A DNA stretch of 64,000 bases from the IMG/VR virus record IMGVR_UViG_3300024272_000034, one strand, 5' to 3'. This stretch comes from a virus. The translations under genes were made by a program, and so were the position numbers. The notes under the pieces were generated by a model. It saw nothing but the letters and a program-made list of their open reading frames with translations, did not search any database and was not told the origin of the DNA. The first letter of the stretch is position 1. Each line of letters opens with the position of its first letter. This document shows positions 2,159 through 53,708 of this stretch, one piece after another.

Positions 2159-2175
2159 AAAATTTTTGGTATAAT
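2147..2175 (+). promoter_or_regulatory. sigma-A type promoter TTGACA-N17-TATAAT
   Basis: Exact consensus -35 and -10 hexamers with a 17-nt spacer, upstream of the gene at 2205. Confidence 0.55.
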
Positions 2176-15800: not shown

Positions 15801-18230
15801 ACTACTAATGCTTCTGTAGCGGAAATTGGAGTTTATGGTTTTCATGAAGGAGCTATGAGTTTTGGTTTCAAAGAAAGTGGAAAAGCTTTTATAGGTAAAG
15901 ATACTCGCGGACGTATTCATTTTGATGGAAATGATGGTTCAATTTATTCTTCTGCTTGGATTGCTAATTCAGAAGATAATCATAGAGGATTGTATTTGGA
16001 TATTGATGATGGTAATATTCAAATGCGATAGGAGTATGGTTCTGCAAATATAACCACCTTTATACAAGTACCTGTAAATACTATTAATTTTAAATCTAAT
16101 ATATATTATGCTTTTCAAGAATATATATTAAGTAAAGAAGGATATAGTGCCAGTAAAACTTATTATGAACCATATGGATATAAATTAGTTGATATTGAAG
16201 CCGGTGGATATGAACCTGGTATATATTATAAAAGAATAGAATCTTCATCTACTACTGGTTCTGGTGATAATGCTGAAAATATTAAAATAACAGAATATGT
16301 TTTAGATAATGAATCTTTTAATCCAACTAAAAATTATTATTATGTATCTGCTTTTAAAGAAAGTTCAGTGAGTGCTTCTTCTTATTAGATTAATAAATAT
16401 TATATTAAACAAGAGCCAAATAAAGATGAAGCAACAGGTCAAATTTTAATAAATTCATTGATTCCAAAAGAACAGACAACTTATTATAAACCTTTTTTAA
16501 CTTATTATGAATAGACAGAAATTTCTCCTAATAAATATATTGATTTAGCAACTAGTTCTAATGAAACTGATTATAGAAACGTTTATCCTCTATCTATTGG
16601 ATATGAAAAAAATGTTTATGAGCGTGCATTTAGAGTAAGTTGGGATGGAACTATTTATGTAGAAAATGGTGAATTTAATGGTGAAATTCATGCTACTTCT
16701 GGAACTTTAGGAGATTTGGAAGTAACAGGAACGCTTATAGGTGGAACAATTGTTGGTGGTGATATTTCTGGTGCTTGGATTAGTGGTAGTACTATTGAAG
16801 GTAGTAGAGTATACGCTGATGATTTAATCTGTTATAATGGTAATATTGCTGGTTGGCGCATTACTGAAAATTATTTAAGAAATAGTAATGGAACAATTGT
16901 TTTATATTCAGATGGTGAGCGTGGAGAATTGGCAAAATTTGGTGGATGGAAAGTTACTAAGCTTGGTTTTGAAAATCGTCTTGGAACTTATAAAGATGCG
17001 AATAATATTCGCACCACAAATAATTTTAGTTATTTAAAAGGCGGATTGATTAGTGGTAGTATTTTAGATACGCCATCTGGAGGTATGCTTTTAGCTGGTA
17101 AATTTAAATTAGCTTAGAGTTTAAGCCCTGGTTTTGATACTAATACTGGTATTGGAAATTATTTGCTTATTCCTGGCACTATTGGTGTTGTAATGTCTGA
17201 TATTGAAACTAGTCCAGATGCACCAGAATATTATGGTATAGGATTAGAATATGGTGAACCTGTTAAATCTTAGATAAAAGCTACAGCTGTTAATGTTGGT
17301 ATGCGTTATGGAGTTAATCAATCTATATGGATTACTGATAAAACAATCGGTTTAGCATCTAATGATGGTGATTTGTCATTACATTCAAAAGATACTATTC
17401 ATGAATATTCAGCTACAAATGTTAATATTGGTGTAAAAACTGGTTCAGGTAATAATGTTGAGTTATATCCTTAGTTTGAATCTTATTATAATGGTGGATA
17501 GCAAACAGTAACATTAGGAATTTATGCCAATGATGCTATTACTATTGGTCCAGTAGAAAATGTAGGGGCTTCTTCTTGTAATTTAATTAGAATAGGAGAA
17601 CAGTCTTTAACTATGGATATTGGAGCATGGACTACTAATTTAAATATTGGATAGAATGCATAGAATATTAAAATAGGAGAATTTGCTAAAACTATCATAG
17701 AAATTGGTAGTTCGGTTCCAGAGATAAAACTTGGAAGTACTTCCACACCAAAAATAACTATTGGTAATACGGGAGCCGCTGTTACAATATAGAATAATTT
17801 GTTGACACCAAATTTATATATTACAAATGGTTTTGAAGCTATTGATGGTAATTATGCTGGAACTATAGTTATGAATCCTTCAGGTTTTTAGTTATAGGGC
17901 GGTTCCTTTACTTTAGGAAAAGATGGAGCTTCTGTTAGTGGAAATATTTATTATAATGGTTCTATTAATCTTGAAAATGGATTTAATGTTACTAGTGGTT
18001 CAATAAATATTGGCGGCGGAGAAAATGAAGCAATATTTGGTTCTATATATTATTCTGGTAGTGTTAATTTAGGTAATGGTTTATAGATAACTACTGGTGA
18101 TTTAAATATTAAAGGTGGTAGTGCTACTTTTGATAATAATTTAGAAGTAAAAGGAACTGTAACTATTGGAAGCGGATTGACGGTTGCGGAAGGAGCTACT
18201 GTTACTGGAGTTTATGCTACTTTATTATGA
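12873..18230 (+). CDS. giant tail-tip/baseplate structural protein (1785 aa; distal-tail/Tal-like position after the tape measure gene)
   Basis: Seven track ORF fragments are in one frame joined only by TAG, ending at TGA 18228-18230. The C-terminal third has Gly-rich beta-helix-like repeats (IGGTIVGGDISGAWISGSTIEG, GSINIGGGENEAIFGSIYYSGSVNLGNG). Confidence 0.65.
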
Positions 18231-34568: not shown

Positions 34569-36471
34569 ATGATTACAAAAGTAACGGAACAAAATTCTGT
34601 AAAATATCAAAAATTATTCAGAGAAGCTGAAGAATTATTAAAAAGTACTGGTACTGAAGATATTGTAGTTGGAGAAACAATTGACGATTTATATGAATAT
34701 TTTATTGCTTTTCCTTCAATCTTAAATGCGGCCGCTATTAAAGATGCTTCTGATGATAATAAAACTGGTGATCCTGAATATTACCAAAAGTATTTTACTA
34801 TATTACCTTTAGATGAACCAGTATTTGAAATTAATGCTGATACTCGTGCGATTACAATTCCACAGCAATTTAAAAGTATTGGTGTAACTGGTGATAATAT
34901 TGCGGAAATTGTTTTCTTTTCTATTGATAGATTCTTTGATGCTGTTGATTTTGGTGCTCCTGAAATTGAAGCTGTAATTGAATGGCATCGTACTACCGGA
35001 GATAATCAAGATACTTATGTTGATAAAGCTTATATAAAAGAATTAACATTAAAAGAAAATAAAGTTTTAATTGGATGGGTTATTGATGAACGCATTACTG
35101 AAGAGCCTGGTACAATTGAATTTGCTGTAAGATTGGTTATGAAAGACGAAAAAAATGAAATTATTTATAGTTTTAGTACATCAGCAGCAAAAGTAAATAT
35201 TAATAAAACACTTAATTTTTATCCAGATGCTACTGAAATTGATAATACGGCGATTGCGCAAGTTAAAGCTCGTATTTTAGCAACTAATTCGCCTGATGTA
35301 TCAAATGAAAATTCTTTAAATGCTCCAGCATATAATATTATAGAAGACGATGGTGATGAAATATCTACAAATATTGATTCTATGGTTGATGATGAAGGAA
35401 AACCATTAACATATTCTTATACTTCTACTAATGATTTTTATGCCGATTTTAATGATGAAGATAATGCTTTAGTAGTAAATGTTAAAGCTAGAAGTACTAA
35501 TGGTAATGGAGATGAACGTCTTCTTTATCGTTGGTTTAAATGGAATGAAAATGATAAAAACTGGCAAGCTTATCCTATTGGAGCTGTTGAAGCAGTTGAT
35601 GGAAATCAAACTATTATTGATTCTATTGGTAAATTTAAATGTGTAGCAATAGATAATGTTGGTATTCGTAGAGCGACAAAAGATAGCCAAATTCTTCATA
35701 TTCTTGGTCCATAGAAACCAGAAGTTAAAACTGCTGATGAAGGAGTTTATACTTCTATAATTTTAACCAATGAAGCAGATGGTATGGAATTAAATGTAAA
35801 ACCAGGTCATGAAAATGATGTATTTTATGTTGATAATTATGATATTAATAATAAAACAAAATTATCTTATGAATGGAAAAAGAGCAATAATCTTAATGAT
35901 ACTATTAAGATTGATATTGAAGATGCTTATGAACAAAAATATCAAGCAAAAGAAGAGGGCTATTATTATGGTTATGCTATAACTTAGCGTAATTTAAAAA
36001 TTGAAACATCTGATGAAGCTAGTATATATCGTGTAACTAAGCCTTTAATTCAACCTACTTTATAGTATACTGTATTAGGATTATAGAATGGTACTAATGG
36101 TAAAATTGGAGAAACTATTGAAATTGATTTTAGCACTTATGATGATGAAGGCAATGTATTAACAACTTATGCTTATGATACAATTGATTATTAGTGGTAT
36201 CGTTCTATGAATCAAAATCAAGGTGATAGTAGTTATCAAAAAGTTGAAGATGAAGACTATAATCAAGGACATCTTACAGCTACTGATAGAAAAATTTTAT
36301 TTACACCAAAAACTCCAGCAGCTTATAGAATTAAATTATTGGTTAAACGTAATGGATAGAGTATTCCTGAAAAAGATTTTGATGAAAATGATTCATCCAC
36401 TTGGCCAATGTTAAATCAATTATAGACCAATGGAACTTATGATGAATTAACTATTTCAATGAGCATAGATT
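34569..36471 (+). CDS. structural protein with Ig-like C-terminal region (634 aa); N-terminal domain paralogous to the gene at 36496
   Basis: RBS AAAGGATGAA upstream. Track ORFs 34569 and 35784 are joined through TAG. It ends at TAA 36469-36471. Confidence 0.55.
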
Positions 36472-36495
36472 AATCAATAAAGGAGGTTATAAGAT

Positions 36496-37059
36496 ATGAT
36501 AACCAATCCGGTTGATTATTACAATAAAATATTATAGATAAAAGATTTAAATAAACCTCAATATGCGCTTTTGCTTCCAACAGATGAAACAATTTATGAT
36601 ATTGATTTATCTACAAGAGAAGTTAAAGCACCTAAATTTTTAAGTTTACACAAAGATCATTATGCGGAAACCATTTATTTTAAAGTTGATAGATTTTTTG
36701 ATAATATGGATTTAGCAGATACAGTTTGTACTATTTAGTATGTAAATGATGGTGTAAAAAAACTTACAGGTGAAGCTGATGCGGGTCGCATTTATTTAGT
36801 ACCATTTTTTGATATTTTTACATATCGTGATGACAATAAAATGCTTATTCCTTGGCAAATTAGTGGTTTAGTAGCTAGAGCTCCTGGTAATATAACCTTT
36901 TCATTTAGATTTTATAAATTAAATGAAACAGGAGATTTTATTTATTGTTTAAATACTTCTCCTGCTACAAGTAAAATTCTTAATGGATTAGATTTAAAAC
37001 TTCCAGAAAATGATGAAGGTTATATGGAAGCAGGAATTGTAGATGATATTTATCATTAG
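36496..37059 (+). CDS. hypothetical protein (187 aa), paralog of the N-terminal domain of the gene at 34569
   Basis: RBS AAGGAGG upstream. Shared motif: LPxDEx[FY][ED]I[ND]xxTRx[IV]xxP ... AExx[FY]F.[IV]DRFFD.[VM]D[FL]. Confidence 0.5.
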
Positions 37060-37114
37060 ATAGATATTGTGAGTAAAGCTACTGATTTATATTGGATTGA
37101 AGTTGAATAAAAAT

Positions 37115-37143
37115 TTGACATAAATAAAAATTTATGTTATAAT
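37115..37143 (+). promoter_or_regulatory. consensus sigma-A promoter TTGACA-N17-TATAAT at the head of the rSAM cassette
   Basis: Exact hexamers with a 17-nt spacer. Confidence 0.6.
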
Positions 37144-37177
37144 AATATAAAAGAAAAGAAAGGTTAGGTATTTAATT

Positions 37178-37483
37178 ATGGCAACTACTTTAACAATTAA
37201 TTATTCTGTAAATGGAGTAGAAAAGAATCTTATATTAACTGAAATTACTAGATGTTCTGAAGATTTTAAATCTGAATATGTTTCTTTAAATATTTCTTGT
37301 AATGATATTGTTGAAAATAGTATTTTAGGTGAATTAATGAATTCTATAATTTCTGATATCATTTTTATAGAAGACTCTGAAACTACCACTTTTACTAATT
37401 ATACTCGTCTTTATAATATTAATCGTTCTTATAAAGGTGAAGGTTCTTCTTTAACTTTTAATTTAAGAGAATATTTTAATTAA
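37178..37483 (+). CDS. hypothetical protein (101 aa, no TAG), first gene of the cassette
   Basis: RBS AAAGGTTAGG upstream. A clean ORF. Confidence 0.45.
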   Translation: MATTLTINYSVNGVEKNLILTEITRCSEDFKSEYVSLNISCNDIVENSILGELMNSIISDIIFIEDSETTTFTNYTRLYNINRSYKGEGSSLTFNLREYFN

Positions 37484-37519
37484 TTTATTAAATTAAAATG
37501 AATAAAGGAGGAATAATTT

Positions 37520-38689
37520 ATGGCAGCTGATGATAAAATATTAGCAACGTAGATTAGTACAAATTCTTCTTCCTGGTATCAAAGATTAAGAGCTATTTAG
37601 GCAAATAATAAAACAGGTATAGGCGGGTCTGCTTTATAGCAGACCGCCGACCCTGGTATCACTTCAGGAACGAAGATGACAGCAACACATATTAATAATT
37701 TTATTAATGCTTTAACAGCTTTAAAATCAAATGTATTTTTAGCTTATGCGGATTGGACTAATTATACTCCTTCTACTGTTTCTAGTGGTGGAAAAGCTAA
37801 TGCTTCTACTACATAGACTAAAATTAATAATATGTTAACATCACTAGAAAGTATATGTAGTAATTGTTAGACATATAGTACAAATAGTTATTCTAATACT
37901 TGTTCAAATAATGCTACAACTAGTTATTCAACCTATTCGGAAAGTATTGATAAATATAATTATTCTAATACATGTAAAACTACTTATAATTCCACAGAAT
38001 CTACAAACTCTACTTGGAGTGAAAGCTGTAAAACAACTTCTAATAGTACTAATAGCTATTGTTCTGATGCTAATTGTAGCGCTTATAGCGAGAATGAAAC
38101 TTGTGCAGAATTTTATGTTGGTAATAGCACTTATTCTACAGATAGCACTAGCTCAAATTCTACTTATGGAGTTGGAGATTCTACTTAGGCAACAGATGCT
38201 ACTTCTGTTTGTGCTACTTTATCAACTTATAATGATGAAATATCTTATAGTACAGATTGTAGTGATGGTTGTTGGGATTGTACTTTTCATTCTTATTGTC
38301 CTGCAGCTGAAGTAGCTACTTATAGCGTCGGAGAGTGTTCAACTAATGCTACTAATTCTGAAAATTCAACAGAAGGAGTTTGTAGCACTTGTAGTACTAA
38401 TTCTACTGATTTTTATTGTAATGAAAACTCTTGTACTGAACATACAAATAGAGGTACATATTCAAATCATTCACAATGTAGTACTTGTGGAAAAAACAGT
38501 ACATATAATGATACTTGTCAAACTTGTGAGACTGATTCAACCACATCAAATACAACTTATACTTAGTCAAATTCTACATATACTAACACTAATGATGGTT
38601 ATAGTACATATTCAAAAAAAGCTACATATGGAACATATACTAATACAAGTGGTAATTCAACATATTAGACTTATACGGTAAAAAATTAA
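37520..38689 (+). CDS. Cys/Ser/Thr/Asn/Tyr-rich protein (389 aa, 22 Cys, 9 in-frame TAG); candidate rSAM substrate
   Basis: RBS AAAGGAGGAA upstream. Codon-by-codon translation gives an ordinary ~100-aa N-terminal region, then ~290 aa of low-complexity S/T/N/Y-rich sequence with CxxC and Cx2-6C spacings (SICSNCQTY, SYCSDANCSAY, DCSDGCWDCTFHSYCP, CSTCSTNS, CNENSCTEH, CSTCGKNS, CQTCETDS). It ends at TAA 38687-38689. Confidence 0.6.
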
Positions 38690-38719
38690 TTGAAATGAGA
38701 TAAAGGAGAAAATATTTTA

Positions 38720-40078
38720 ATGTTACAAGATAGAGAAACAATTATTTTATATACTACAGCAGTATGTAATTTAAATTGTACTTATTGTTTTATTGATAAA
38801 AATCCAAGTTTAAAAAAGATAGATCAATGGCTTGATGATAGTTTTTTAAAAACTCCAGATTATTATTTTGAATATGCAAAAAAAGCCGTTTTACAAGAAA
38901 AACTAAAAGAAGTATAGATTTGGGGTGGAGAACCTTTTTTGGGTATGCATAGAGCCTATGCAACAATAGATAAATTTATTAATTATTTTCCAAATTTAAA
39001 AAATTTTATGACTTCTACAAATTTTGTATCTCATTGTTTTTTTGAAGAATTTTATGGACTTCTTGATATTTTTAGAAAGCATCCAAATAGAAATTTTACA
39101 TATAGTTTATAGTTATCATTAGATGGTGTAAAGGAAATAAATGATATTAATAGAGGTAATGGAGTTACTGATCGTTTTATTATTAATTTTGAAAAATTTG
39201 TTAAAGAATTACAAACTTTATTACCAAACAATTTAACATTAAAAATGCATTTAAAGCCCACTATTGATACAAATTCTTTGAAAAAATTATAGACTAAAGA
39301 ACAAGTTTTTGAACAATTTATCTTTTTTGAAAGCTTCAATGAAGTATATTTGAAATATAATAAAAAAAATAATTTACTATTTTCACTTCCAATTCCTAAT
39401 ACAGCTTGCCCATCTCCTCATACTCAAGAAGATGGAATAATGTTTGCAAATTATTGTAAAATAACAAGAGAGCTTGAAAAAGAAAATAAAAATAATAAAA
39501 TTTTTAAATTTTATAATAATATTACAAGCTTTACTCCAAGAAGAAAAATTCAATATGACAAACTTTCATTATCAGGATATTGTCAAGGTCATTGTGGTAA
39601 TGGAAAAAGAGCTATTGGTCTTTTACCTAACAATATGGTTTCTTGTTGTCATAATGGTTTTGTTGATTTGCTAGCTGAATATAAAAAGAATGTATTAACA
39701 AATAGTGAACATATGGATAATGTTACTATTGAAAAAAGTTTATTTAAAAATAAACGTAATACTTTAATTTTCCCTTATGATAGTAAAGAATTTGAAATGT
39801 ATCAAAAACAATTAGAAGTTTTTTATCAAAATGATGATACTGCCAAAATTTCTAATTGTGCTTCTTTAATTAAATTATTGGCTGATTTTGAACAAATTGA
39901 TAAAAAATATCAAGATAAAAAAGAAGCTGTTAAAGGTGCTTATTTTATTTTTAATACTACATCATATTGTGTTAGAGATAATTTAGGTGTGACTGGAAGC
40001 ATCTATATGTATCCTGTTGGTTTAATTAAATTATTGCTAAATGGAGCTAGAGAATATATTGAGGAAGGATGTAATTAA
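38720..40078 (+). CDS. radical SAM enzyme with C-terminal Cys-rich (SPASM/twitch-like) region (452 aa, 3 TAG)
   Basis: CNLNCTYC (CxxxCxxC) near the N-terminus and GGEP in IWGGEPFL. C-terminal cluster CQGHCGNGKRA...SCCHNGF. Track ORFs 38720 and 39350 are in frame across TAG. Confidence 0.7.
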
Positions 40079-41467
40079 ATGGCAAAGTGTTTAAATTTTT
40101 AGGAAGAAAAAGATGTTATTTTATGGTCATTAATTAATGATACATTTGGAAGACTTTTTTCTAAAGAAAAAAAAGAAGATATTGAACATGATATGGGGTT
40201 AGAAATTTATATAACCCCTGAATGTAATTAGAATTGTTCTTATTGTTATTTATGTAAAAATGGTGATGAACTTTATCCTAAAGAATTAAGAAATCCTACA
40301 ATAATTTTAAATAATTTAAAAATTATGTTAGATTATTGTATTGATAATAATTGGAATCCTGGAAGATTTGATTTTTTTTCTGGAGAAATTTGGGATACTG
40401 ATTTAGGTTATAATGTTTTAAGCATTACAGAAGAAGCAATAGAAAGAGGTTTTCACCCTAGACTAATTGTAATTCCATCAAATTTTAGTTTTATTTTAAA
40501 TGAAGAAGCTAAAAATAGAGTTGAAAAATTTATGGAAAAATGTAGACAATTTAATATAAAGCCATGTTGGTCTTGTTCTAATGATGGTTTATTGTTAGAT
40601 TTAGAGACAAGACCATTTAATTCAGATGAATTAAATGCAAAAAAAGATACTGAAGATTATTATAAAAAATTATTTGAATTTTGTAAAAAATGGAATTTAG
40701 GTTTTCATCCAATGGTGGCAGCACACGGAATTGAAAAATGGTCAGAAAATTTTTTATGGTGGATGTCAGAATTAAAGAAATATAAATTTGAAAGAAATTC
40801 TTCAATAATGTTTTTAGAAGTTAGAAACGATGATTGGACAGATGATAAAATTTATCATTATTTAAAATATTTAAATACTAGTATTAATTATTTAAATGAT
40901 GAATGTATTAATTTAAATACATTGTCTTTTGAAGATTATGTTAGAAAAACTAATAAAAATATTAAATACAATTATACACCTGTTATTTTAGAAAAATCAA
41001 GTTTATAGCCTGGATGCACTATTCATAGATCTTTAGTTATTCGTTTAGGTGATTTAGCAATAGTTCCTTGTCATAGAACTTCTTATGAAGAATTTATTAT
41101 AGGACATTTTAAAGTAGAGAATAATAAAATTATAGGAGTTACAGCTAAAAATATTCAAATAATGAATTAGGTATGGCTAAATAATATGAGTGGTAATGCT
41201 AAATGCACTAATTGTCCTTATAGCAATTACTGTATGAAAGGATGTTATGGTTCTTAGTTTGAATCTACTGGAGAATTATTATATCCAATAGAATCAGTAT
41301 GCAATTTATATAAAGCAAGAGCAATATTTATTTTTTATAAATATTTAAAAATGGGTATTTATAGAGAAGATAATCCCGAGGATAAAAAATATTTTGATTT
41401 TATTCAATCAATTAAAGATACGAAGGAGTTTAAAAAATGGTACAAAATTGTTTAGGAATTGATTTAA
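40079..41467 (+). CDS. second radical SAM enzyme with C-terminal Cys cluster (462 aa, 5 TAG)
   Basis: Start overlaps the upstream stop (TAAATG). The rSAM motif is CN(TAG)NCSYC, i.e. CxxxCxxC if TAG is sense. C-terminal CTNCPYSNYCMKGCYGS resembles SPASM. Track ORF 40325..41008 is in frame. Confidence 0.65.
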
Positions 41468-42036
41468 TTAATATTTATGAAAATCTTATCATAAATGGAT
41501 TAAATGTAGAATTAGCAAAAGATATTGAAAAATATTTGATTTATTTTTTAGACAATAACACTAATGAAAATTAGTTATTATTATATAATTTATTAAATAT
41601 TTTAAAACGTCAATAGAATACATCAATTCTTCTAAATTTTTTAATTCAAGAAGTTGAATTAAAGTTATTAAGATTAAGTTTTTCTAATAATGATATAAAA
41701 AATAATAAAGATTGTTATAATATTTCATCTTGTCAAAAAAATGAATCTAAAGAAGAATTAAAGAAAATTTTAAAAGTAACTAATAAAGATTTATTCCCTC
41801 CAAAAGGGACTACAACTCGTATTATTAATAAAAGAAAAGAAGAAAATGAAGAACATGAATATGTTTTAGAGATAGATGATCAAGGTAATGTTTTAGAAAT
41901 TTTAGAACATTATATAACAAAAAATGATGCAGATTCTATTGATATATTAAATGATTCTCCTTTAAGCAAACTTAAAGAAAAATATCTTAAAGAAGATAAA
42001 GAAAATAATTCTTTAACAGAAAATGATTTAGAATAA
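41437..42036 (+). CDS. hypothetical protein (199 aa, 2 TAG) overlapping the rSAM gene end
   Basis: Frame +2 relative to the previous gene. Acidic C-terminal half. Function unknown. Confidence 0.45.
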
Positions 42037-42061
42037 TATTAATAATTTAAATATTTCTAAA

Positions 42062-43138
42062 ATGGGATTAGGAATTATGCGTCATAATTCTAATCAACAA
42101 TATACAAAACAACTAATAGAATATGCTTTAAATAATAAAATTAATTATTTTGAAGCTTGTGATTTCTATTTACAAAACGCTTGTGAAATACGTCTTGGGG
42201 ATGCTTTAAAATAGCATCCTCGGACTTCATATAAATTATGTGATAAACTTCCATTATCTACAATTCCTTATTTTATTCAAAAAAATAAAAATTGGAATTT
42301 AAATGATTATTTTAATAATCAATTAGCAAAATGTAGAACTGATTATTTTGATGTTTATTTGATTTAGGCTTTAGATGAACGTAATTTTAATTACTTGGAA
42401 AAATATCAAATTATTGATTTCTTTTTAAAACAAAAAGAACAAGGAAAAATTAAATTATTGGGTTTTTCTTTTCATGGAAAAGTTGATATTTTAAAAAAAT
42501 TATTAGAAATGAAATGTTGGGATATCGTTTAGTTTCAATTAAATTATTATGATTGGATTTTAGGTGAGGCGAAAGAATTATATTTTTTAACAAAAGAATA
42601 TGATTTACCTATTATTACAATGGGACCAACTAAAGGCGGATTATTAATAAATAATTTACCTAAAAAATCATTAGATAGATTAAAAGAAAACAATATTAAT
42701 CCAGTCTATTTATGTTATTCTTTTTTAGAAACTTTAGACAACGTTAAAATTATTTTATCAGGAGCAGAAACTTATGAAATGATTAAAGATAATTTAAATT
42801 ATTTTGAAAATGAATCTCATAAATTAACTCCAGAAGAGTGGTAGCATATTAAACAAAATATTCAAGATTATCAAGAATAGAGTTTAATTCAATGTACGGG
42901 ATGTCGTTATTGTGTTCAAAGATGTCCTGCTAATTTACCAATAGATAAAATTTTTAAAGAATATAATAATTTTATTCAATCTAAAGATTTATAGTCAAGA
43001 GAATTTTTATATTAGAATATTCATAGTTCTAACTCTACACAGAATTGTAAAAATTGTGGTCAATGTGTAAAAATTTGTCCGCAACATTTAAATATTCCAG
43101 AAATTTTTCATAAACAAATTTTCCCAGTAAGGAGATGA
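42062..43138 (+). CDS. aldo/keto reductase-fold oxidoreductase fused to a 2x[4Fe-4S] ferredoxin domain (358 aa, 7 TAG)
   Basis: N-terminal AKR-like pattern (LGIMR...INYFEACDFY...LGDALK...KLLGFSFHG...ITMGPTKGGLL). C-terminal CTGCRYCVQRCP and CKNCGQCVKICP. Ends at TGA 43136-43138. Confidence 0.65.
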
Positions 43139-43142
43139 AAAA

Positions 43143-43553
43143 ATGGTAGTATCTGAATTAGTAGCTACAATTTTTCAAGTTTGTATAATTCCATTATTGG
43201 GTGTATTAACTACTTTTTTTGTAAAATGGGTTAATTCCAAAAGCGCAGAAATCTCAAATAAAATTGATGATGAAACATTAAATAAATATTTAAATATGCT
43301 TACTGAAACAATTAATACTTGCGTTTTAGCAACCAATTAGACATATGTTGAAAGTTTAAAACAACAAGGAAAGTTTGATGCGGAAGCGCAGAAAGAAGCA
43401 TTTAATTTAACTTGTTCAGCAGTAATGGATATTTTAAGTGAGGACGCAAAAGAATATTTAACTTCTGCTATTGGAGATTTACAAATTTATATTACAAAGA
43501 AAATTGAAGCTGAAGTACATACAAATAAAGTTACACCTTGTGTAAATCAATAA
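43143..43553 (+). CDS. small membrane protein (136 aa, 1 TAG), N-terminal TM helix
   Basis: RBS AAGGAGATGAAAAA upstream. Hydrophobic N-terminus LVATIFQVCIIPLLGVLTTFFV. Last gene before the terminator. Confidence 0.5.
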
Positions 43554-43563
43554 AATAAATATA

Positions 43564-43604
43564 GGGGAACCTTTAGTATAATCTAAAGGTTCCCCTTATT
43601 TTTG
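43564..43604 (+). terminator. rho-independent terminator closing the cassette
   Basis: GGGGAACCTTTAG-TATAAT-CTAAAGGTTCCCC hairpin followed by TTATTTTTG. Confidence 0.75.
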
Positions 43605-43620
43605 TTTATATTAAATTCTA

Positions 43621-44314
43621 TTATAAGTAAGCCAACGTTCACGAATTAAATCATGAGATTTTTTGGGAAAATATAATACTTCATCATTTTCAAAAGTTAA
43701 ATGGTCAGTATCAATAATCTTAATTTCACTTAAATTAATCAATAAACTTGTGCTAAAAATAAAAATTGCGGATGTTGGTTCAATGGAGTTATTGCTTTTT
43801 CAAAAGATGAGCGCAATGACTAACCATCAAACATTGTTCCATTTTTTAAATGATAACATAAACAACGTTTTACAATGTTAATATAATTAACTTGACTTGA
43901 GCGTATTCTTCTTTCACCTTCCGCAGTTTTAATTACCAAACTATCTTCTCTTATCTCTTTTTTAATTATATTAAATAATTCAAACAATTCTTCTTTTTCT
44001 ATTGGTTTTAAAAAATAATGATCTGCATGCACTTTATAAGCAGGATAAGCGAGAGAAGGATCTTCTCCAATAAAAATAAAATAACTATTTGGGTCTATTT
44101 TATCCATGCGATGACTTAACTCATATAGATTTTCTGATGAATCAGTGTCCATAATATAAACATCAAAACTTGCAGGAACAACAAGTAAATCTTCTGATTT
44201 ATCAAAAATTGATACTTTTGCCACAGACTTAGATTCTATTAAATATTCTTGAATCATCTCACGCAATTCATTTAAATATGTTTTGTTGTCATCATAAATA
44301 GCAATAGAGAGCAT
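43621..44314 (-). pseudogene. LytTR-family response regulator (receiver + LytTR DNA-binding domain), interrupted by an apparent -1 frameshift
   Basis: Track ORF 43820..44314 encodes the receiver-like N-terminus and the start of LytTR (VIKTAEGERRIRSSQVNYINIVKRCLCYHLKNGTMFDG). The domain continues through a TAG. It ends in another frame (LINLSEIKIIDTDHLTFENDEVLYFPKKSHDLIRERWLTYNRI, stop at 43621-43623). The shift falls in a T-rich tract (CAATTTTTATTTTTAGC). The cause could be a true frameshift, programmed slippage or a sequencing error. Confidence 0.5.
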
Positions 44315-44349: not shown

Positions 44350-44378
44350 ATTATAACATAAATTTGTGAGAAAATCAA
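44350..44378 (-). promoter_or_regulatory. sigma-A type promoter (TTGATT-N17-TATAAT on minus strand) for the LytTR gene
   Basis: Reverse complement reads TTGATT TTCTCACAAATTTATGT TATAAT, about 30 nt upstream of RBS AAAGGAGG and the ATG at 44314. Confidence 0.5.
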
Positions 44379-44501: not shown

Positions 44502-44626
44502 GGATGAAAAATCAGACAAAAAATGTGTGAGTGTTTCTTGTTTAAAAATCTGAAACAATTTTTATATAGTAATGGAAGGGTAAGAGAAAAATAAAAAAAA
44601 TGAATAAATACCTTGGAGGTGAATAT

Positions 44627-45103
44627 ATGAATTATCAATATAATCAGTAGCAGGTGAGTCCACCGCAGAATTAGACGACTCAGCAGTATTCTTACCAACG
44701 ACAAGTTCCTTATACTTCTGGAACTTGGAATGCGAGAGTCAGACCGGTTTCTTCAATTGAAGAAGTAAGAGCATCTTCAATTGATTTTGATGGCTCAATT
44801 TTTTATTTCCCAGATGTTGCTAATAAAAAAATCTATACTAAATTTATTAATTTAGATGGCTCTGTGGCAATTAATGTATATGAGTTAAAAGAAATGCCAA
44901 CAGGTTAGGCAGCAGATTCATCTTACATTACAAGAGAAGAATTTGAAAACGTAATTATGTAGTTAAAAATGATGTATAATAATTCTTCTGCGCCTTCTAC
45001 TCCAATAGAAGAATAGCAATAGGTATAGTAGTAGATGAATAGTAATTAGTTTGCGGCACCACCCGCACAATAGCAACATAATGTTTCGCCATTACAATTT
45101 TAA
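44627..45103 (+). CDS. hypothetical protein (158 aa) with Gln-rich C-terminus encoded by mixed CAA and TAG codons
   Basis: RBS GGAGGTGAA upstream. The C-terminus reads TAG CAA TAG GTA TAG TAG TAG ATG ... GCA CAA TAG CAA, which is QQQVQQQ...AQQQ if TAG=Gln. Ends at TAA 45101-45103. Confidence 0.55.
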
Positions 45104-45116
45104 GGAGGTATGAAGA

Positions 45117-45362
45117 ATGGCACAAGTTGATCCGAGACAATTAATAGCTATGATTAGAAATGGTCAAAATCCTCAACAACTTATGTTAAGTGTTTTAGAG
45201 ACGATGCAAGATACTCCTTTTGGAGCCAATTTATTGAATCTCGCTCGCAATGGTTAGACTGCGGAGATTGAAAAAATTGCTCGGAATATCACATCTCAAA
45301 GAGGTATGGATTATGATAAAGAGTTTAATGCCTTTAAACAATAGTTTTTTGGCTTTAAATAA
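45117..45362 (+). CDS. small hypothetical protein (81 aa, 2 TAG)
   Basis: RBS AAGGAGGTATGAAGA upstream. Ends at TAA 45360-45362. Confidence 0.45.
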
Positions 45363-45399
45363 ATAAAATATTTTTTTTAATTAAAGGAGGGTTTCTTTT

Positions 45400-46194
45400 A
45401 TGTTTAATTCTAATGGTTACAGTTTGGCAGATATCGTTGCCGCAACAGGTGGCGGTAGAGAGAATTGCGGCGGCTTCGGCGGCTGGGGCGGAGATGGATG
45501 GTGGATTATCCTCTTATTCTTGCTCTGGGGTAACAACGGCTGGGGCGGCAATCAAGGTGGACGTGGAACAGTTCGTGAAGAAATTGCTTATGGTTTTGAT
45601 ATGAACGGTTTAGAAAATAGCGTCCGTGGTGTTCAGCAAGGTATTTGTGATGGTTTCTATGCCATGAATACTGGTATGTTAAATGGATTTAGTAACATTC
45701 AAAATACTCTATGTCAAGGTTTCTCTGGTATCAATCAAGGTACAGCTCAGTAGACATTTGATTTATCTACTCAGTTACATGGTATGGCAGCTGATAATGC
45801 GGCTTGTTGCTGCGAAACTCAGCGCGCTATTGAAAGAGGATTTGCTGAAACCAACTATAACATGGCAACTCAAGCTTGCGATACTCGTAGAGCAATTGCT
45901 GATAGCACTCGTGATATTATTGACAGTAATAACGCAGGTGTTCGTTCTATTTTAGATTTCTTAACTCAGGATAAGATTGCTACTCTTACCGCAGAAAATC
46001 AGAGTCTAAAATTCGCAGCTTCTCAGGCAGCTCAGAACGCTTTCATTGCAGCTAATCAGGAAGCTCAAACCGCAGAACTTATTCGCAGACTTGATACCCC
46101 ATGTCCTATTCCCGCTTATGTAGTTCCTAATCCTAATTGTTGCTATCCATCTTATGGATATGGGTATGGCAACACTGGATGCTGCGGTGGTTAA
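45400..46194 (+). CDS. Gly/Trp/Cys-rich protein with one hydrophobic segment (264 aa, 1 TAG)
   Basis: RBS AAAGGAGGG upstream. Track ORFs 45400 and 45784 are in frame across the TAG at 45751. N-terminus GGFGGWGGDGWWIILLFLLWGNNGWGGNQGG. Cys clusters CCCETQ and NPNCCYPSYGYGYGNTGCCGG. Confidence 0.55.
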
Positions 46195-46219
46195 TTAACA
46201 AAGGAGGTAAAAAATCTGT

Positions 46220-46639
46220 ATGGAAATTATTGCTAATGCTTTATAGACAGTTCCAGCAAATCAGACTGTTTATTTCACAGATACCGCCGTATGCGGTGGC
46301 CCATCTATGACTCATAGAGCTGGTAGTGGTTTAATTACTCTTAGAGGAATTACTAATCAATGTAGAGCAAGATTCCGCATCACTTTTGGAGCAAATATTG
46401 CTGTTCCAACAGGAGAAACAGTTGGACCAATTTCATTGGCTATTGCGATAGAGGGTGAACCTCTTCAAGCTACTACAATGATTGAAACACCAGCGGCTGT
46501 TGAAGAGTTCTCAAATGTTTCAAGAACTACCTTTATTGATGTTCCTCGTGGATGTTGTGTAAGTGTAAGTGTAAGAAATGTAAGTGATATTCCAGTAAAT
46601 GTACAAAACGCAAACTTAATTGTTGAACGTGTTGCTTAA
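46220..46639 (+). CDS. BclA C-terminal-domain-like (C1q/TNF-like) protein (139 aa, 1 TAG)
   Basis: RBS AAGGAGGTAAAAAA upstream. The C-terminus ...NVQNANLIVERVA and the internal RFRITFGANI...GPISLAIAIEGEPL pattern resemble the BclA exosporium CTD, which ends ...IIIEKVA. The assignment is by motif recall only. Confidence 0.4.
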
Positions 46640-46657
46640 TGAAAGGAGGTCTTATAA

Positions 46658-47305
46658 ATGGAGAAAAGATTAGAACATATGAAAGAATCTTTAATGGCTT
46701 GCGTTGAAAGTCAATTAACTCATTTAGATACAGTTGATACTAAAGAATTAGGTGAAGCCATTGATATGATTAAAGACCTTGAAGAAGCAATCTATTATTG
46801 TACTATTACAAAAGCAATGAAGGAACAGGATAAAGGAGAAAAAGAATCTCATAAATATTATCCAGTAATGTATAATAGAGATATGGATAGAGATATGGGA
46901 AAAATGTATTATGAAAACCCAAATTATATGGGTGGTAATGATACAAAACGTCAATATTCATCTGGAAATGGAGGAGGCAACTCCTCCTCCATGAGTAATT
47001 CTTCTGGAAGCGGAGGAGGTAATTCATCCTCTGGAAATACTGGTTCAAAACAATATAGTGAAACAGAATATAATTTAATGCGCGACCAGCGTGAAGGACG
47101 TAGTCCTCAGTCGCGCCGCATGTATATGGAATCAAAAGAAATGCATTCAGATAAAGCAACTCAAATGCGTGAATTAGAAACTTATATGCAAGAGTTAACT
47201 CAAGATGTAGTTGAAATGGTTGAAGGTGCAACTGTTGAAGAAAAGCAGTATTTAAGTAAACGAGTAGCAGCTCTTGCAAACAAATTGGCTCAATTAAATG
47301 ATTAA
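46658..47305 (+). CDS. hypothetical protein with Gly/Ser/Asn low-complexity core (215 aa, no TAG)
   Basis: RBS AAAGGAGGTC upstream. A clean ORF. The core repeats NGGGNSSSMSNSSGSGGGNSSSGN. Confidence 0.5.
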   Translation: MEKRLEHMKESLMACVESQLTHLDTVDTKELGEAIDMIKDLEEAIYYCTITKAMKEQDKGEKESHKYYPVMYNRDMDRDMGKMYYENPNYMGGNDTKRQYSSGNGGGNSSSMSNSSGSGGGNSSSGNTGSKQYSETEYNLMRDQREGRSPQSRRMYMESKEMHSDKATQMRELETYMQELTQDVVEMVEGATVEEKQYLSKRVAALANKLAQLND

Positions 47306-47561
47306 CATTAATGGTGAACAATGGAGAGTGTTTTTAACCTCTCCATTTCACCCTGCTTTAAAACGCAGTGATGGTGCTTATACTCTAGGATGCTGTGATG
47401 ATGTAACAAAAACAATTTATATAAGTAATGATGTAAGTGATAAATATTTAAAAAAAGTTTTATGCCACGAACTCACTCACGCCGCAATGTTTAGCTACAA
47501 CGTAGATTTGACTTATGAGCAAGAGGAAGTTCTCGCTGATATTATAGCAACATATGGATAG
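47298..47561 (+). CDS. small HExxH-motif protein, putative minimal zinc metallopeptidase (87 aa)
   Basis: LCHELTHAAMF contains HExxH. Overlaps the previous gene by 8 nt. Confidence 0.4.
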   Translation: MININGEQWRVFLTSPFHPALKRSDGAYTLGCCDDVTKTIYISNDVSDKYLKKVLCHELTHAAMFSYNVDLTYEQEEVLADIIATYG

Positions 47562-47630
47562 GAAATTATTCATATGGCAAATCTTCTCTTTAAGAGGTTA
47601 AAAGATGAAAGAGAAGAAGAAAGAAAAAAT

Positions 47631-47668
47631 GGGAGTATCTAATAATTTAGATACTCCCATTTTTTTTG
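47631..47668. terminator. bidirectional rho-independent terminator between the convergent modules
   Basis: GGGAGTATCT-AATAATTT-AGATACTCCC hairpin with an A run upstream and a T run downstream. Confidence 0.7.
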
Positions 47669-50215: not shown

Positions 50216-50299
50216 AGAAATATTTCCATAATCTTTAGATTCTTTTTTTAAATTACACTTCATTATTTATCTCCTTTTTTATTTTATATAATAATTATA

Positions 50300-50782
50300 T
50301 CATATTTTTTTATTTTTGTCAAGATAAATAATACGTTGATTGCGGCTTCCTCTCATAGGAAGTGTAATGTCTCTTTCAGCTTCAATATAAGGTCCATCAA
50401 TTAAACAAGTAATTAATTCTAAAATTTCTTTTATATTTGGATTATGAGGTAAATCATCGTAAGTATACCCTGTCCATAAATAAATTTCTGTATCTGGTAA
50501 TTTTTCTTTAACAGTTTTTATTACCAATAAAGTCAAAAAAGTATTTTCAGGACATAAAGGTTCTCCACCCAAAATACTTAAAGAACGCTTAATACCATTA
50601 GCTTGAAGAGCTTCAATTATTTCATTAATTACATCAGTAGTAAATTCTAGTCCTCCGTCATAATCCCAAGTTTCGGGATTATGACAGCCAAGACAATGAT
50701 GCGGACATCCTTGAGTATAGAAAGAAACTGATACACCAGTTGCCGCAGAAAAATCATTTTTAATTAAACCTGCATATCGCAT
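50300..50782 (-). CDS. nrdG: anaerobic ribonucleotide reductase activating protein (160 aa)
   Basis: GCPHHCLGCHNPETW (CxxxCxxC radical-SAM cluster) after the GVSVSFYTQ motif. Adjacent to nrdD. No TAG. Confidence 0.75.
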   Translation of the reverse strand: MRYAGLIKNDFSAATGVSVSFYTQGCPHHCLGCHNPETWDYDGGLEFTTDVINEIIEALQANGIKRSLSILGGEPLCPENTFLTLLVIKTVKEKLPDTEIYLWTGYTYDDLPHNPNIKEILELITCLIDGPYIEAERDITLPMRGSRNQRIIYLDKNKKI

Positions 50783-51416: not shown

Positions 51417-53708
51417 TTATCCATGTTTAACCCTTCGCTCTACCTCATCTTGTTTACCAAGGTTAAAAGCAGTTTTATAATTACCAGTTAAATAACCAGT
51501 AACTCTACGCAATTGTTGAATTTCTTTACTTCCGCATTCTGGACATTCATCATTAAATTCATCAGTATATCCGCATTTAAGACAAGTATCATTTGGAACA
51601 TTTACTGCGAAATAAGGAATATCTTTATCCATAGCATAATTTACTAAAATTTCTAATGCCTCAAGATTATTTTTAATTCCACTATCCAATTCAACATAAG
51701 TAATACATCCAGCAGAAGAATAACAGGTTAATTGAGATTCAATATCAATTTTTTCAAATGGAGACATCTCTATCCACACAGGTACATGCATAGAATTAGT
51801 AAAGAATTCTTTATCGGAAACATTCTCAATTACACCATATTTATCTTTAAATTTCTTTAAAGCAGTATGACATAGGTTTTCCGCAGGTGAATAATAAACA
51901 CCAAAATTTAATTTATATTCATTTTTAAATTGAGCACAACGAGTTTTAAACAATTCTTCAATTCGTTTTGCTAATTCCATTCCTTCTGGAGTAGTATGAT
52001 TTTTTCCAATAAGAATTTGAAGCGTTTCAGCAAGACCTAATTGTCCAAGAGCAAGGGTACCATGCTTAAGAGCGGAACGTATTCCTTCTTCTGGAATATA
52101 TCCTGCCATAAGTCCATTTTCATACATAAACTTAGCAGAATCAGGAGATTGACTACAAATCCATTCAAATCTTTCAATAAGCATATCTTTAGCATCATAT
52201 ATTGCTTTATCAAGAATTTCCATAAAAATATCTACAAGTTCAGTAGTATATTTATATTTATCTGTAAATTGATTTTCCCACTCTTCTTTTGCTTCCATGG
52301 CTAATGTAGGAAGAATAATTGTTACAGGACAAATATTACCTCTACCATCTTTGAGTTGACCAAAACCATTAATATCCCAACCATTTGCTGTGCGGCATCC
52401 CATCGTTGAGAAATAAGTTCTTGGGTCATTAATATCATATCCAGCATTACCAGACCAATCAACATTTGCGTAATTGGGATATAGTCTTTGAGCGGTTGAT
52501 TTTAAAGCCAATTGGAATAAATCATAATTGGGGTCTCCAGGTTTACGATTTACACCTTTCATACATTGAAAGATTCCACAAGGGAAAATAGATGTTTTAT
52601 GTAAAGCTCCAATACCTTCAATGGATACTTCAAGCAAAGCTTTAGTCACCATTCTACCTTCTGGTAAAGTACAAGTACCATAATTAATAGAAGTAAATGG
52701 CAACTGATTGCCTGAACGAGATTGAAGTGTATTAAGATTATGATACATTCCTTCTACGGCTTGATGTGTTTCTTTTTTTGTTTCAAATAGAGCTGCTTGA
52801 CTTAAATATTTATCAAGATTAACAATATTACTAAAAGTGAAATCTTCATATTTAAGATTAAATTCTTTTAAATATTTTTCTTTATGATTTTCAACCCAAT
52901 TATCTAATTCTTCATTTGGCATATCCAAAAGAGACAGAGCTAAAAATTCGTCAGTATGTTTTACATATTCTAATACATAATGTTTAAAAAATGATTTGCG
53001 TATATAAGGCACCATGGTCCAGTCAATATGTGTCGCAGAAACACCACCAAATTGTTGTAAACTTTGTAATTGGAAAATAACCGCTACAAGCTGAAATGCT
53101 GTATTTACAGAACCTGCGGGACGCACATCTGTTTGTCTGGTATTAAATCCTTTAGCAAGCAAATCATCAAAAGGAATAGATAAGCAATTATGTGAACCAA
53201 CATAATAACTATTTAAGTCATGAATATAAATACGATTATTTAAATGATTTTCTCTTGCTTTTGGTGATACAATAAAATCTAATGCTAATTGTTTCGTGAC
53301 CACATCTCCAGCTTCACCTGTGCGGCCTCCAAAAGATGCTTCATCTACATTAGCATTTTGGTTTTGGATATTTGTAGCATTTAATTTTTCTTTAACTGCG
53401 TCAATAAAATCATTTTCATAATGTCTAGCAACTTCTTTTTTATATCTATAACGAATATATTCTCTTGCTACATCACTGCGTTCAGAACGCATTAAATATT
53501 CTTCAACTTTATCTTGAACTTTTTCAACAGTAAATGGTTTATCTGAATTATGTACAGCATCTTTATAAATAGCTTCCGCTATATCAGCAGCTGTATCTGT
53601 TTCATAAAGTTTTCCATCAACTTCAAGAAAAGCTTTATTTATTGCGGTAATAATTTTACCTTTATTAAAAGGAACAAGTGTTCCATCTCTTTTATAAATT
53701 TGTACCAT
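51417..53708 (-). CDS. nrdD: anaerobic ribonucleoside-triphosphate reductase (763 aa)
   Basis: ATP-cone-like N-terminus. C-terminal zinc ribbon CLKCGYTDEFNDECPECGS. Glycyl-radical motif RRVTGYL. No TAG. Confidence 0.85.
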   Translation of the reverse strand: MVQIYKRDGTLVPFNKGKIITAINKAFLEVDGKLYETDTAADIAEAIYKDAVHNSDKPFTVEKVQDKVEEYLMRSERSDVAREYIRYRYKKEVARHYENDFIDAVKEKLNATNIQNQNANVDEASFGGRTGEAGDVVTKQLALDFIVSPKARENHLNNRIYIHDLNSYYVGSHNCLSIPFDDLLAKGFNTRQTDVRPAGSVNTAFQLVAVIFQLQSLQQFGGVSATHIDWTMVPYIRKSFFKHYVLEYVKHTDEFLALSLLDMPNEELDNWVENHKEKYLKEFNLKYEDFTFSNIVNLDKYLSQAALFETKKETHQAVEGMYHNLNTLQSRSGNQLPFTSINYGTCTLPEGRMVTKALLEVSIEGIGALHKTSIFPCGIFQCMKGVNRKPGDPNYDLFQLALKSTAQRLYPNYANVDWSGNAGYDINDPRTYFSTMGCRTANGWDINGFGQLKDGRGNICPVTIILPTLAMEAKEEWENQFTDKYKYTTELVDIFMEILDKAIYDAKDMLIERFEWICSQSPDSAKFMYENGLMAGYIPEEGIRSALKHGTLALGQLGLAETLQILIGKNHTTPEGMELAKRIEELFKTRCAQFKNEYKLNFGVYYSPAENLCHTALKKFKDKYGVIENVSDKEFFTNSMHVPVWIEMSPFEKIDIESQLTCYSSAGCITYVELDSGIKNNLEALEILVNYAMDKDIPYFAVNVPNDTCLKCGYTDEFNDECPECGSKEIQQLRRVTGYLTGNYKTAFNLGKQDEVERRVKHG

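Follow-up and report, generated by a model that had tools for sequence, protein, structure and literature searches.

A candidate radical-SAM maturation cassette with a protein-sized, hypervariable precursor in a TAG-recoded phage

Radical S-adenosylmethionine (SAM) enzymes that modify peptides or proteins are known from several settings. The known substrates of sactipeptide and ranthipeptide maturases are peptides of about 40–50 amino acids (aa). In proteusins, a large, folded and conserved leader-like N-terminal domain (NHLP or Nif11) precedes a variable core that is modified by a radical-SAM enzyme. QhpD, a radical-SAM/SPASM enzyme that acts with QhpC in the maturation of quinohemoprotein amine dehydrogenase, forms several Cys thioethers in a protein subunit that is kept uncleaved in the final assembly. 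Positions 37,115–43,604 of a 64,000-nucleotide (nt) stretch of viral DNA (IMG/VR record IMGVR_UViG_3300024272_000034; hereafter the window) hold a cassette of seven genes, A to G, that can be compared with all of these. Its proposed precursor, the product of gene B, is laid out like a proteusin precursor, with a 115-aa folded domain in front, but differs from sactipeptide and ranthipeptide substrates in that a tail of 274 aa follows this domain. The overall picture of the window is that of a TAG-recoded phage of about 28% G+C with an anaerobic host. We tentatively read the cassette as a late maturation system resembling those of peptides that are synthesised ribosomally and then modified post-translationally (RiPPs), with B as a protein-sized precursor and a product that would be carried on the virion.

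Gene B (37520–38689, + strand) encodes 389 aa; here, as for all cassette genes, TAG was translated as Gln. The protein contains 5.7% Cys, 17% Ser, 19% Thr, 11% Asn and 7.7% Tyr, and has two parts. Residues 1–115 (37520–37864) form a small helical domain ending in I-C-S-N-C, while residues 116–389 (37865–38689; 274 aa) form a low-complexity tail, rich in Ser, Thr, Asn and Tyr, which is the proposed substrate region. There are 21 Cys in the tail and 22 in the whole protein, five CxxC pairs in the whole protein, and about 12% aromatic or His residues in the tail. Spacing of the tail Cys is irregular (3–36 residues), with CxxC pairs enriched and (T/I/V)-C-S-T as the preferred context, and the C-terminus is a conserved motif (...STYQTYTVKN). 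Structures were modelled on relatives rather than on the window proteins, B by its closest ortholog, P0001, which shares its synteny, and C by P0167. In the AlphaFold model of P0001, residues 1–115 are helical, with a predicted local distance difference test score (pLDDT) of 85–95, and the remaining 310 residues score 30–40; on this model the tail of B is predicted to be disordered. The N-domain has no Pfam family, and a search of PDB and BFVD with the P0001 model, whose disordered tail may lower sensitivity, found no matching fold. It is 100–115 aa long, aligns across all lineages as one family with the junction (I/V)-x-C-(R/S)-N, and has 182 representatives in a set of 1.84 billion representative proteins; these are 150–480 aa long, and almost without exception the domain stands at their very N-terminus. 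It is a candidate enzyme-recognition domain, anchoring domain, or both.

The tails of the family show what has been kept and what has not. Aliphatic residues are scarce in them (median 11%), and Ser, Thr and Asn abound. At least three tail Cys occur in 87 of 111 representatives, and all 27 tails that adjoin C and D have between 4 and 44. Aromatic residues and His make up a median of 11% of the representative tails and are present in each of the 27 locus tails. Repeats are lineage-specific: NSTY-type in the clade of the window, xSNGx pentads, CNHG...TQTNTA, literal CXXX (locus L027) and CY (L038); the tail DNA of B itself holds only degenerate or eroded 36-nt repeats. At the C-terminus, the tails carry one of two short conserved motifs, STY-x-V-(V)-T or T-x-I-D-I-x-N-A. 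Identity of the B tail to its orthologs is 23–36% (23–28% without the closest relative), against about 24% for controls of shuffled composition; the corresponding values are 58–70% for C and 46–55% for D. In these alignments the tails keep their composition and not their sequence, and are hypervariable. A search around the Cys and aromatic residues for a constant donor-acceptor motif gave only the weak preferences (T/I/V)-C-S-T and N-S-T-Y, and aromatic-x-x motifs are not enriched beyond composition. Nine B-like proteins, including some with literal CXXX repeats, gave nothing significant in Pfam; B and the two CXXX-repeat proteins of L005 and L027 gave nothing in NCBIfam, and for B there was no PHROG family either. 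Two overlapping candidates, a hydrophobic 256-aa open reading frame (ORF) on the + strand (37911–38681) and a 279-aa ORF with 27 TAGs on the - strand (37824–38663), were rejected as shadow frames of the low-complexity codon pattern, because orthologs keep the N-domain and the C-terminal motif in the frame of B.

Directly downstream of B are the genes of the two enzymes. Gene C (38720–40078, +) encodes 452 aa, with CNLNCTYC at residues 16–23 and WGGEP, and gene D (40079–41467, +) encodes 462 aa, with CNQNCSYC at residues 49–56 and FSGEI. Both proteins thus carry the CxxxCxxC motif and a GGE-type SAM-binding motif of the radical SAM superfamily. C matches the Pfam Radical_SAM family (PF04055) at 34 bits against a cutoff of 29.5, and D matches the SPASM model TIGR04085 at 31.4 bits against a cutoff of 27. 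The earlier note, made from the letters of the window, had given both enzymes auxiliary Cys clusters besides the radical-SAM motif. The motif is invariant in both (CNLxCxYC in C, CNxxCxYC in D), and D has the full SPASM pattern, with invariant Cys at 313, 331, 376, 379, 385, 389 and 408, but C retains a one-cluster remnant only. Its further invariant columns are WGGEP and Cys 292, 310 and 417, with Cys246 nearly invariant; these four extra Cys would be enough for one auxiliary cluster. Of the CteB motif, moreover, only the first half aligns with C, which by its conserved columns appears to be a twitch-like or partial SPASM enzyme, not a full one. The two are remote paralogs (hhalign E 9e-7, 14% identity). 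There is no N-terminal RiPP recognition element (RRE) in either, since one of about 85 aa would not fit ahead of the radical-SAM motif, whose first residue is number 16 in C and 49 in D.

Among NCBIfam models, C is best matched by DynA (1.2e-9), TIGR04463 and YhhB, and D by PapB (2.5e-9), the SCIFF maturase and the SPASM domain model. All matches to named enzymes lie between 25 and 38 bits, where the cutoffs are 340–525 bits. Profile matches in the PDB are to CteB (D, 1.3e-5; C, 0.012), ChlB (C, 0.0023) and SkfB. By these comparisons C and D appear to belong to the SPASM-type clade that modifies peptides and proteins, outside every curated family. Their chemistry cannot be read from homology, because the similarity is at superfamily level and the scores are 10–20 times below every curated cutoff; in fold, cyclophane synthases and anSME are as close to C and D as thioether maturases are. 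A division of labour, in which D would form thioethers at Cys and C would form C–C bridges at aromatic residues, fits the weak matches and the presence of two modifiable residue classes in every tail, and is proposed on that ground. The enzymes might instead modify B without crosslinking it, by epimerisation, by conversion of Cys or Ser to formylglycine-type residues, or by other side-chain chemistry, which would leave the tail protease-resistant or reactive but unstapled. This is quite improbable: the best sequence matches are to crosslink formers (CteB, PapB, SCIFF maturase, ChlB, DynA and SkfB), Cys residues are frequent across the tails as counted above, and no sulfatase-type C/S-x-P/A-x-R motif was seen by eye in B.

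The association of these three genes is conserved. In a large protein collection B has 46 homologs, all metagenomic and all unnamed. They led to nine independent contigs with the same order, a small protein (A), B, a radical-SAM enzyme of about 455 aa, a radical-SAM-like protein of about 470 aa and a small overlapping gene (E); F occurs on only some of these contigs. In the protein database the C family comprises at least 240 clusters and the D family at least 673, none of them named, and many members of the two families lie on contigs of 100–280 kb. Further loci were collected by profile scans of IMG/VR and of GTDB genomes; a scan of IMG/VR with a single-sequence pattern had given no match, whereas the profile-based scan succeeded. 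The loci so found include phages with the standard code, and their contigs were binned with metagenome-assembled genomes (MAGs) of Clostridium, Faecalibacterium, Roseburia, Lachnospiraceae and Bacilli. Hidden Markov models of the cassette parts were then used to score 41 distinct C genes on metagenomic phage contigs. D adjoins C in 40 of these 41 loci, and the exception is cut by the contig end. A B-family gene lies within 4.5 kb of C in 36. In three of the other five C is at a contig end; the fourth has a fused or divergent ORF (L035) and the fifth a weaker match downstream (L047). Across these contigs the C–D pairing is obligate and the linkage to B near-obligate. Of the 41 loci, 15 gave a match to the E type, 10 to F and 9 to the holin type. 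From these counts the conserved core would be B–C–D plus a small coupled gene, and A, F and G would be clade-specific additions.

That B is the substrate of C and D may be questioned. C, D and F could be a phage module for auxiliary metabolism or for a cofactor, or their target could be a protein of the host or another one of the phage, with B as a neighbouring low-complexity protein of structural or metal-binding function. The five CxxC pairs could bind metal, F is a redox protein, and what ties B to the two enzymes is genomic linkage, not biochemistry. Yet this linkage survives wide divergence as well as changes of genetic code and genomic context. All the homologs found that share more than 37% identity with C came from phage-like contigs, with a B-like gene wherever flanking DNA was available; the enzymes fall in a clade that modifies peptides and proteins; and F is dispensable, being absent from 31 of the 41 loci. 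This alternative seems highly improbable, and we infer that B is the substrate. The earlier note had proposed a RiPP-like system with the Cys-rich protein as substrate, and had said that it would be undermined if the enzymes proved homologous to an unrelated family or if conserved neighbourhoods lacked the Cys-rich gene. Neither is the case, as the nearest relatives of the enzymes, in sequence and in fold, are CteB, ChlB, SkfB, PapB and the SCIFF maturase, and the loci without a recognised B gene are explained by contig ends or problems of detection. At the level of system type, the proposal stands.

The cassette fits a single transcription unit. A sigma-70-type promoter (TTGACA-N17-TATAAT, + strand, 37115–37143), which matches the consensus at 12 of 12 positions and has an extended -10 TG, precedes gene A, and a bidirectional intrinsic terminator (stem at 43563–43596, whole feature 43563–43606; 14-bp stem with seven GC pairs, T-runs on both strands) follows gene G. 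The seven genes lie between the two, where the earlier note had placed them, and no other terminator-like site on the + strand was found between promoter and terminator. The terminator also closes a convergent gene on the - strand (43739–44314). Packing is tight: the gap between C and D is 0, D and E overlap by 31 nt, E and F by 14 nt, and F and G are separated by 4 nt. Genes B, C, D, E and G have a ribosome-binding site of the GGAG type; A has a weaker AAAGG and F has none. Exact TTGACA-N17-TATAAT sites occur three times in the 64 kb, at 2147–2175 (+), 37115–37143 (+) and 50294–50322 (-), each no more than about 60 nt upstream of a gene start. They look like real host-type promoters because each faces that nearby start, and are probably the strong promoters of the phage for the host RNA polymerase. 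Their A/T-rich spacers are of similar sequence.

Under the standard bacterial code the cassette region reads as broken ORFs. With TAG as a sense codon, coverage of positions 1–48,000 by ORFs of at least 100 aa rises from about 0.5 to about 1.0, and recoding of TGA gives no comparable rise. Reading TAG as Gln is justified because, at the columns where recoded C and D orthologs have TAG, no residue is more enriched among the other homologs than Gln, at 4–5 times background (frequencies of 0.15 and 0.12 in the C and D alignments against a background of 0.03). No suppressor tRNA was found within the window. The earlier note had assigned recoded TAGs to the cassette genes in general; they are present in B, C, D, E, F and G, as they are in the virion genes, and absent from A. 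Translation of the cassette depends on TAG suppression. Stop-codon recoding as a gate on late genes is a published idea, and it matches the distribution of TAG in the window. On the + strand, up to about 37 kb, are matches to a virion structural protein family and to tail protein families of PHROGs, with giant ORFs of 3306, 1785 and 2050 aa; on the - strand, from about 48 kb, lie genes for replication and nucleotide metabolism with hardly any TAG. As a sense codon, TAG is concentrated in the genes for virion, tail, cassette and lysis, with 78 in the 3306-aa ORF alone. Expression of the cassette is likely to be late, since TAG occurs in B–G as in virion genes and the holin gene is co-transcribed.

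The remaining cassette genes are more variable in occurrence. Gene A (37178–37483, +; 101 aa) has orthologs directly upstream of B in loci L001–L012 and is kept only in a clade of phages of about 100 kb; it evolves fast, with 18–53% identity to these orthologs. In gene E (41437–42036, +; 199 aa), which overlaps the end of D, the N-terminal 90 aa or so are kept across orthologs, and the middle and C-terminal parts vary in length. Neither A nor E has a match in Pfam, PHROG, NCBIfam or the PDB, alone or across orthologs. The idea that E or A is an RRE of the PqqD type is unsupported, as the orthologs of both are without a PqqD signal. Gene F (42023–43138, +; 371 aa) encodes a fusion of an aldo-keto reductase with a 2x[4Fe-4S] ferredoxin, as had been supposed from the letters, with matches to Aldo_ket_red (PF00248; 7.5e-25, 88 bits against a cutoff of 24) and Fer4_9 (1e-10, 42 bits against 27). 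It carries two CxxCxxCxxxCP motifs, CTGCRYCVQRCP and CKNCGQCVKICP, and its PDB matches are generic aldo-keto reductases and FdhB-type dicluster domains. F would serve as an accessory supply of electrons to the clusters of the radical-SAM enzymes. Gene G (43143–43553, +; 136 aa) had been taken for a small transmembrane protein of the system, and is instead a holin, matching phrog_13712 at E 1.1e-31 along 119 of its 136 residues; its residues 4–26 are hydrophobic, a transmembrane helix by eye. A holin follows E or F in the clade of about 100 kb. By this match G appears to be a lysis gene outside the modification machinery, so that the cassette proper would be A–F. In scans of Pfam, NCBIfam and PHROG, none of the seven products matched a family of proteases or transporters.

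These elements can be assembled into a mechanism. B would be the substrate, its helical N-domain the constant part that guides the enzymes and probably serves later as an anchor, and its aliphatic-poor tail, rich in Cys, aromatic residues and Ser/Thr/Asn, the part that is modified. C and D would each cleave SAM reductively to a 5'-deoxyadenosyl radical, abstract hydrogen from residues of the tail and install many intramolecular modifications, most likely Cys-derived thioether bridges (D) and possibly aromatic C–C bridges (C). Multiple crosslinks would turn the disordered chain into a stapled, protease-resistant structure. E, and in the clade of about 100 kb also A, may be accessory partners, and F an optional feeder of electrons from NAD(P)H to the Fe–S clusters. 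The operon would be driven by the consensus host-type promoter, with the product made just before lysis because TAG suppression is needed and the operon ends with a holin. The virion would then display it as an accessory fibre or as a decoration, at the end of the structural module that bears the tail fibres.

A structure exposed on the virion is favoured, tentatively as said, because the cassette stands at the tail end of the structural module, because both termini of B carry conserved motifs, because neither a protease nor an exporter nor a signal peptide turned up (by eye, the N-terminus of B has no hydrophobic signal sequence), and because the tail varies as surface-exposed parts do. In the window the cassette follows tail and structural genes, in L013 it follows a tail lysin, and tail-fibre-like genes precede it, by eye, in L028, L035 and L047. 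Several observations weigh on the other side. None of the other proteins of the window, its tail-fibre proteins included, is related to the N-domain, which matches no known virion fold in PDB or BFVD. C, D, E and A showed no RRE. In a few members of the family the tail has 0–2 Cys, and Cys chemistry is therefore neither the sole nor a universal modification. The neighbours of the cassette in the distant loci L019, L021 and L022 are not obviously structural genes, and the junction of tail-fibre and lysis genes is the usual site of phage cargo genes.

This last point, together with the missing virion fold, would also fit another reading, in which the same chemistry makes a giant RiPP-like effector that leaves the cell at holin-driven lysis and is no part of the virion. 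Such an effector might be a bacteriocin-like killer, a factor that blocks receptors or excludes superinfection, or a signal. The cassette shares its transcription unit with the holin, and lysis-type genes adjoin it in L017, L047, L025 and L027 (by eye). A pair of radical-SAM enzymes, YcaO and glycosyltransferases are typical of natural-product clusters, and hypervariable cores behind a constant leader-like domain are a hallmark of RiPPs. However, scans of the cassette revealed no gene for a leader protease, for export or for immunity, cores of 100–370 residues are far above those of any RiPP known to us, and the short conserved motifs at the extreme C-terminus suggest a role in docking or assembly. 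We consider a released effector unlikely, though a serious rival.

YcaO and glycosyltransferase genes accompany the core in a few of the loci inspected. A YcaO gene (PF02624) lies directly upstream of the B-like gene in L021 (4150–5955; 1e-30) and L025 (4102–5949; 1e-35), and glycosyltransferases of the GT2 and GT8 types are found a few kb downstream of C–D in L022 (10014–11036) and L025 (12150–14757); in these phages the tails may also be heterocyclised or glycosylated. A constant core with changing tailoring genes (YcaO, glycosyltransferases, F) amounts to the behaviour of a RiPP cluster. The fullest statement of the virion reading is that large, uncultivated phages of anaerobic Firmicutes make a giant RiPP of a class not recognised before, in which a leader-like helical domain precedes a hypervariable core of 100–370 residues, stapled by two new radical-SAM families, sometimes together with YcaO and glycosyltransferases, into a crosslinked surface fibre of the virion; taken with all its parts, this is doubtful.

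If the modification of B by C and D is real, the substrates of radical-SAM/SPASM enzymes would include, besides short peptides, a disordered domain about 270 residues long that offers some twenty potential sites, and there would be two more enzyme families, not yet curated, as well as a new domain for recognition or as a leader. Phages as well as bacteria would carry diversifying clusters of the RiPP type, here at the boundary of virion and lysis genes. For gut phages this would be a route, open to test, by which hypervariable surface structures that resist proteases, or effectors for release, could arise. The enzymes may tolerate very diverse sequences, since the tails keep only their composition, which is of interest to enzymology and biotechnology. 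Should the product be a virion fibre, it would be the first case of radical-SAM post-translational chemistry in the building of a virus particle, and the crosslinks could replace disulfide bonds, in an anaerobic cytoplasm.

Other genes near the cassette and its relatives deserve mention. Downstream in several loci is a family of proteins of about 280–310 aa, often in tandem (L021, 10231–11181; L019, 11070–12851; L005, 15105–16821; L011, 8569–10278), with N-termini that read by eye as (Y)YCPG(F/L)(Y/F)E...(I/V)(Y/F)G.FP..IWNGG. The L021 member gave only a sub-threshold match to DUF2661 (E 0.009) in Pfam; of the L005 pair, the first (15105–15944) gave nothing in Pfam or NCBIfam and its partner (15898–16821) nothing in NCBIfam. 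This family is possibly another tailoring enzyme. In L013 the gene upstream of the cassette encodes a tail lysozyme/M23 protein (tail lysin). Locus L047, on a contig of a Roseburia MAG (CANRSX010000028.1), uses the standard code and has the gene order C–D–E–B. By eye, an amidase-like gene lies downstream, bacterial-looking genes lie upstream on the other strand, and one of these, of 671 aa, has an N-terminus like that of methionyl-tRNA synthetase. L047 may be an integrated prophage, and hence a clue to the host.

In the window, two genes just upstream of the promoter (34569–36473, 634 aa, and 36496–37110, 204 aa) appear by eye to have a domain in common (AEIVFFSIDRFFDAVDF against ETIYFKVDRFFDNMDL); similar-sized proteins stand at the same positions in L003, L008, L009 and L010, and the 634-aa protein has a weak PHROG match, the 204-aa protein none. 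The two are candidate partners of the cassette product. The gene that converges on the terminator (43739–44314, -; 191 aa) matches phrog_8810 (1.7e-17) and has a promoter-like site at 44378–44350; its counterpart in L010 has a weak Response_reg match, and its C-terminal half is LytTR-like by eye. It is possibly a phage-encoded regulator beside the lysis gene. Beyond it, 44600–47650 is a block of higher G+C (0.33–0.35 against about 0.26) with six + strand genes, which recur in order and length downstream of the cassette in L001, L003 and L009. They include a Gly/Trp/Cys-rich protein of 264 aa (45400–46194; phrog_16490, 7e-57), with a hydrophobic stretch and the C-terminal sequence CCYPSYGYGYGNTGCCGG, and a protein of 139 aa (phrog_20016, 4e-58). 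Further on, 50300–50782 (-) encodes an anaerobic ribonucleotide reductase activase (phrog_626, 9e-47), and the adjoining gene (51417–53708, -; 763 aa) has a C-terminal RVTGY motif of the glycyl-radical type and is read by eye as NrdD; this pair would be the third radical-SAM-dependent system of the window.

No counterpart of the cassette was found among the phages of GenBank. A blastn search with the whole cassette against GenBank phages returned only a spurious 43-nt match in the promoter region, tblastn with C found no homolog in 50,697 GenBank phage records, and no account of such a system was met with in the literature searched. At the genomic level, and there only, the locus has what a general definition of a RiPP cluster names: a constant N-domain, a variable tail and linked tailoring enzymes. 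Leader removal and export have no protease or transporter in the cassette to account for them; a host enzyme or another phage gene could perform the cleavage. The sactipeptide and ranthipeptide systems differ in this same respect, and their maturases (CteB/SCIFF, PapB, SkfB) differ from C and D in the N-terminal RRE, which C and D lack. Against the models for the SCIFF maturase and PapB (TIGR03974 and NF047865; cutoffs 425 and 340), D scores 32.5 and 36.8 bits, and C scores 25.9 against PapB. To triceptide synthases such as ChlB, and to DynA/YhhB, identity is 13%, with matches mainly in the radical-SAM core; XyeB, GrrM and FxsB are further three-residue cyclophane synthases with which C and D were compared. 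Assignment to anSME (TIGR03942) fails on both the family cutoff and the sulfatase-type C/S-x-P/A-x-R substrate.

The proteusins share with B the arrangement of domain and core, and the Nif11-type radical-SAM maturase model TIGR04064 has a weak match to D (4.3e-6). They differ in that the N-domain of B has no Pfam family or known fold and in the phage setting of the window, and the tail of B is several times longer than any proteusin core we know of. For a product that stays in a structure, QhpD is the closest conceptual precedent. In sequence it is far away, C scoring 17.8 and D 15.3 bits against the TIGR03906 cutoff of 453, and the family scans of the cassette and neighbouring genes turned up no amine dehydrogenase subunit family. 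The window has, moreover, two enzymes, and a substrate that is several times larger and hypervariable.

In organisation the cassette resembles the CXXX-repeat-target system of TIGR04115, a family on which no publication was found in the literature searched. Its members are radical-SAM/SPASM enzymes beside a protein with a non-repetitive N-terminus and a long, Cys-periodic, low-complexity C-terminus, and the literal CXXX repeats of the L027 B-family protein add to the resemblance. One member is found next to a cassette: in L005, a phage contig of 188 kb, a second radical-SAM system (6353–9913) lies just upstream of the B–C–D–E–F module and consists of a 256-aa protein of literal CXXX repeats, two small proteins and a 428-aa TIGR04115 member. 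This last enzyme scores 403.7 bits against the cutoff of 350 and serves as a positive control. The earlier note had known of no described equivalent in the structural module of a phage. None was found in the literature, but an analogous system is, by virtue of this L005 enzyme, already in curated family libraries. The window differs from it in several ways: C reaches 24.4 bits against the cutoff of 350 and D is not listed, there are two enzymes in place of one, the N-domain is a family of its own, and Cys spacing is irregular. Overall, judged from sequence comparison, the B–C–D system appears to be of the radical-SAM/SPASM maturation type, set apart by two uncurated enzyme families, a new precursor domain, a substrate of protein size and its setting in a phage.

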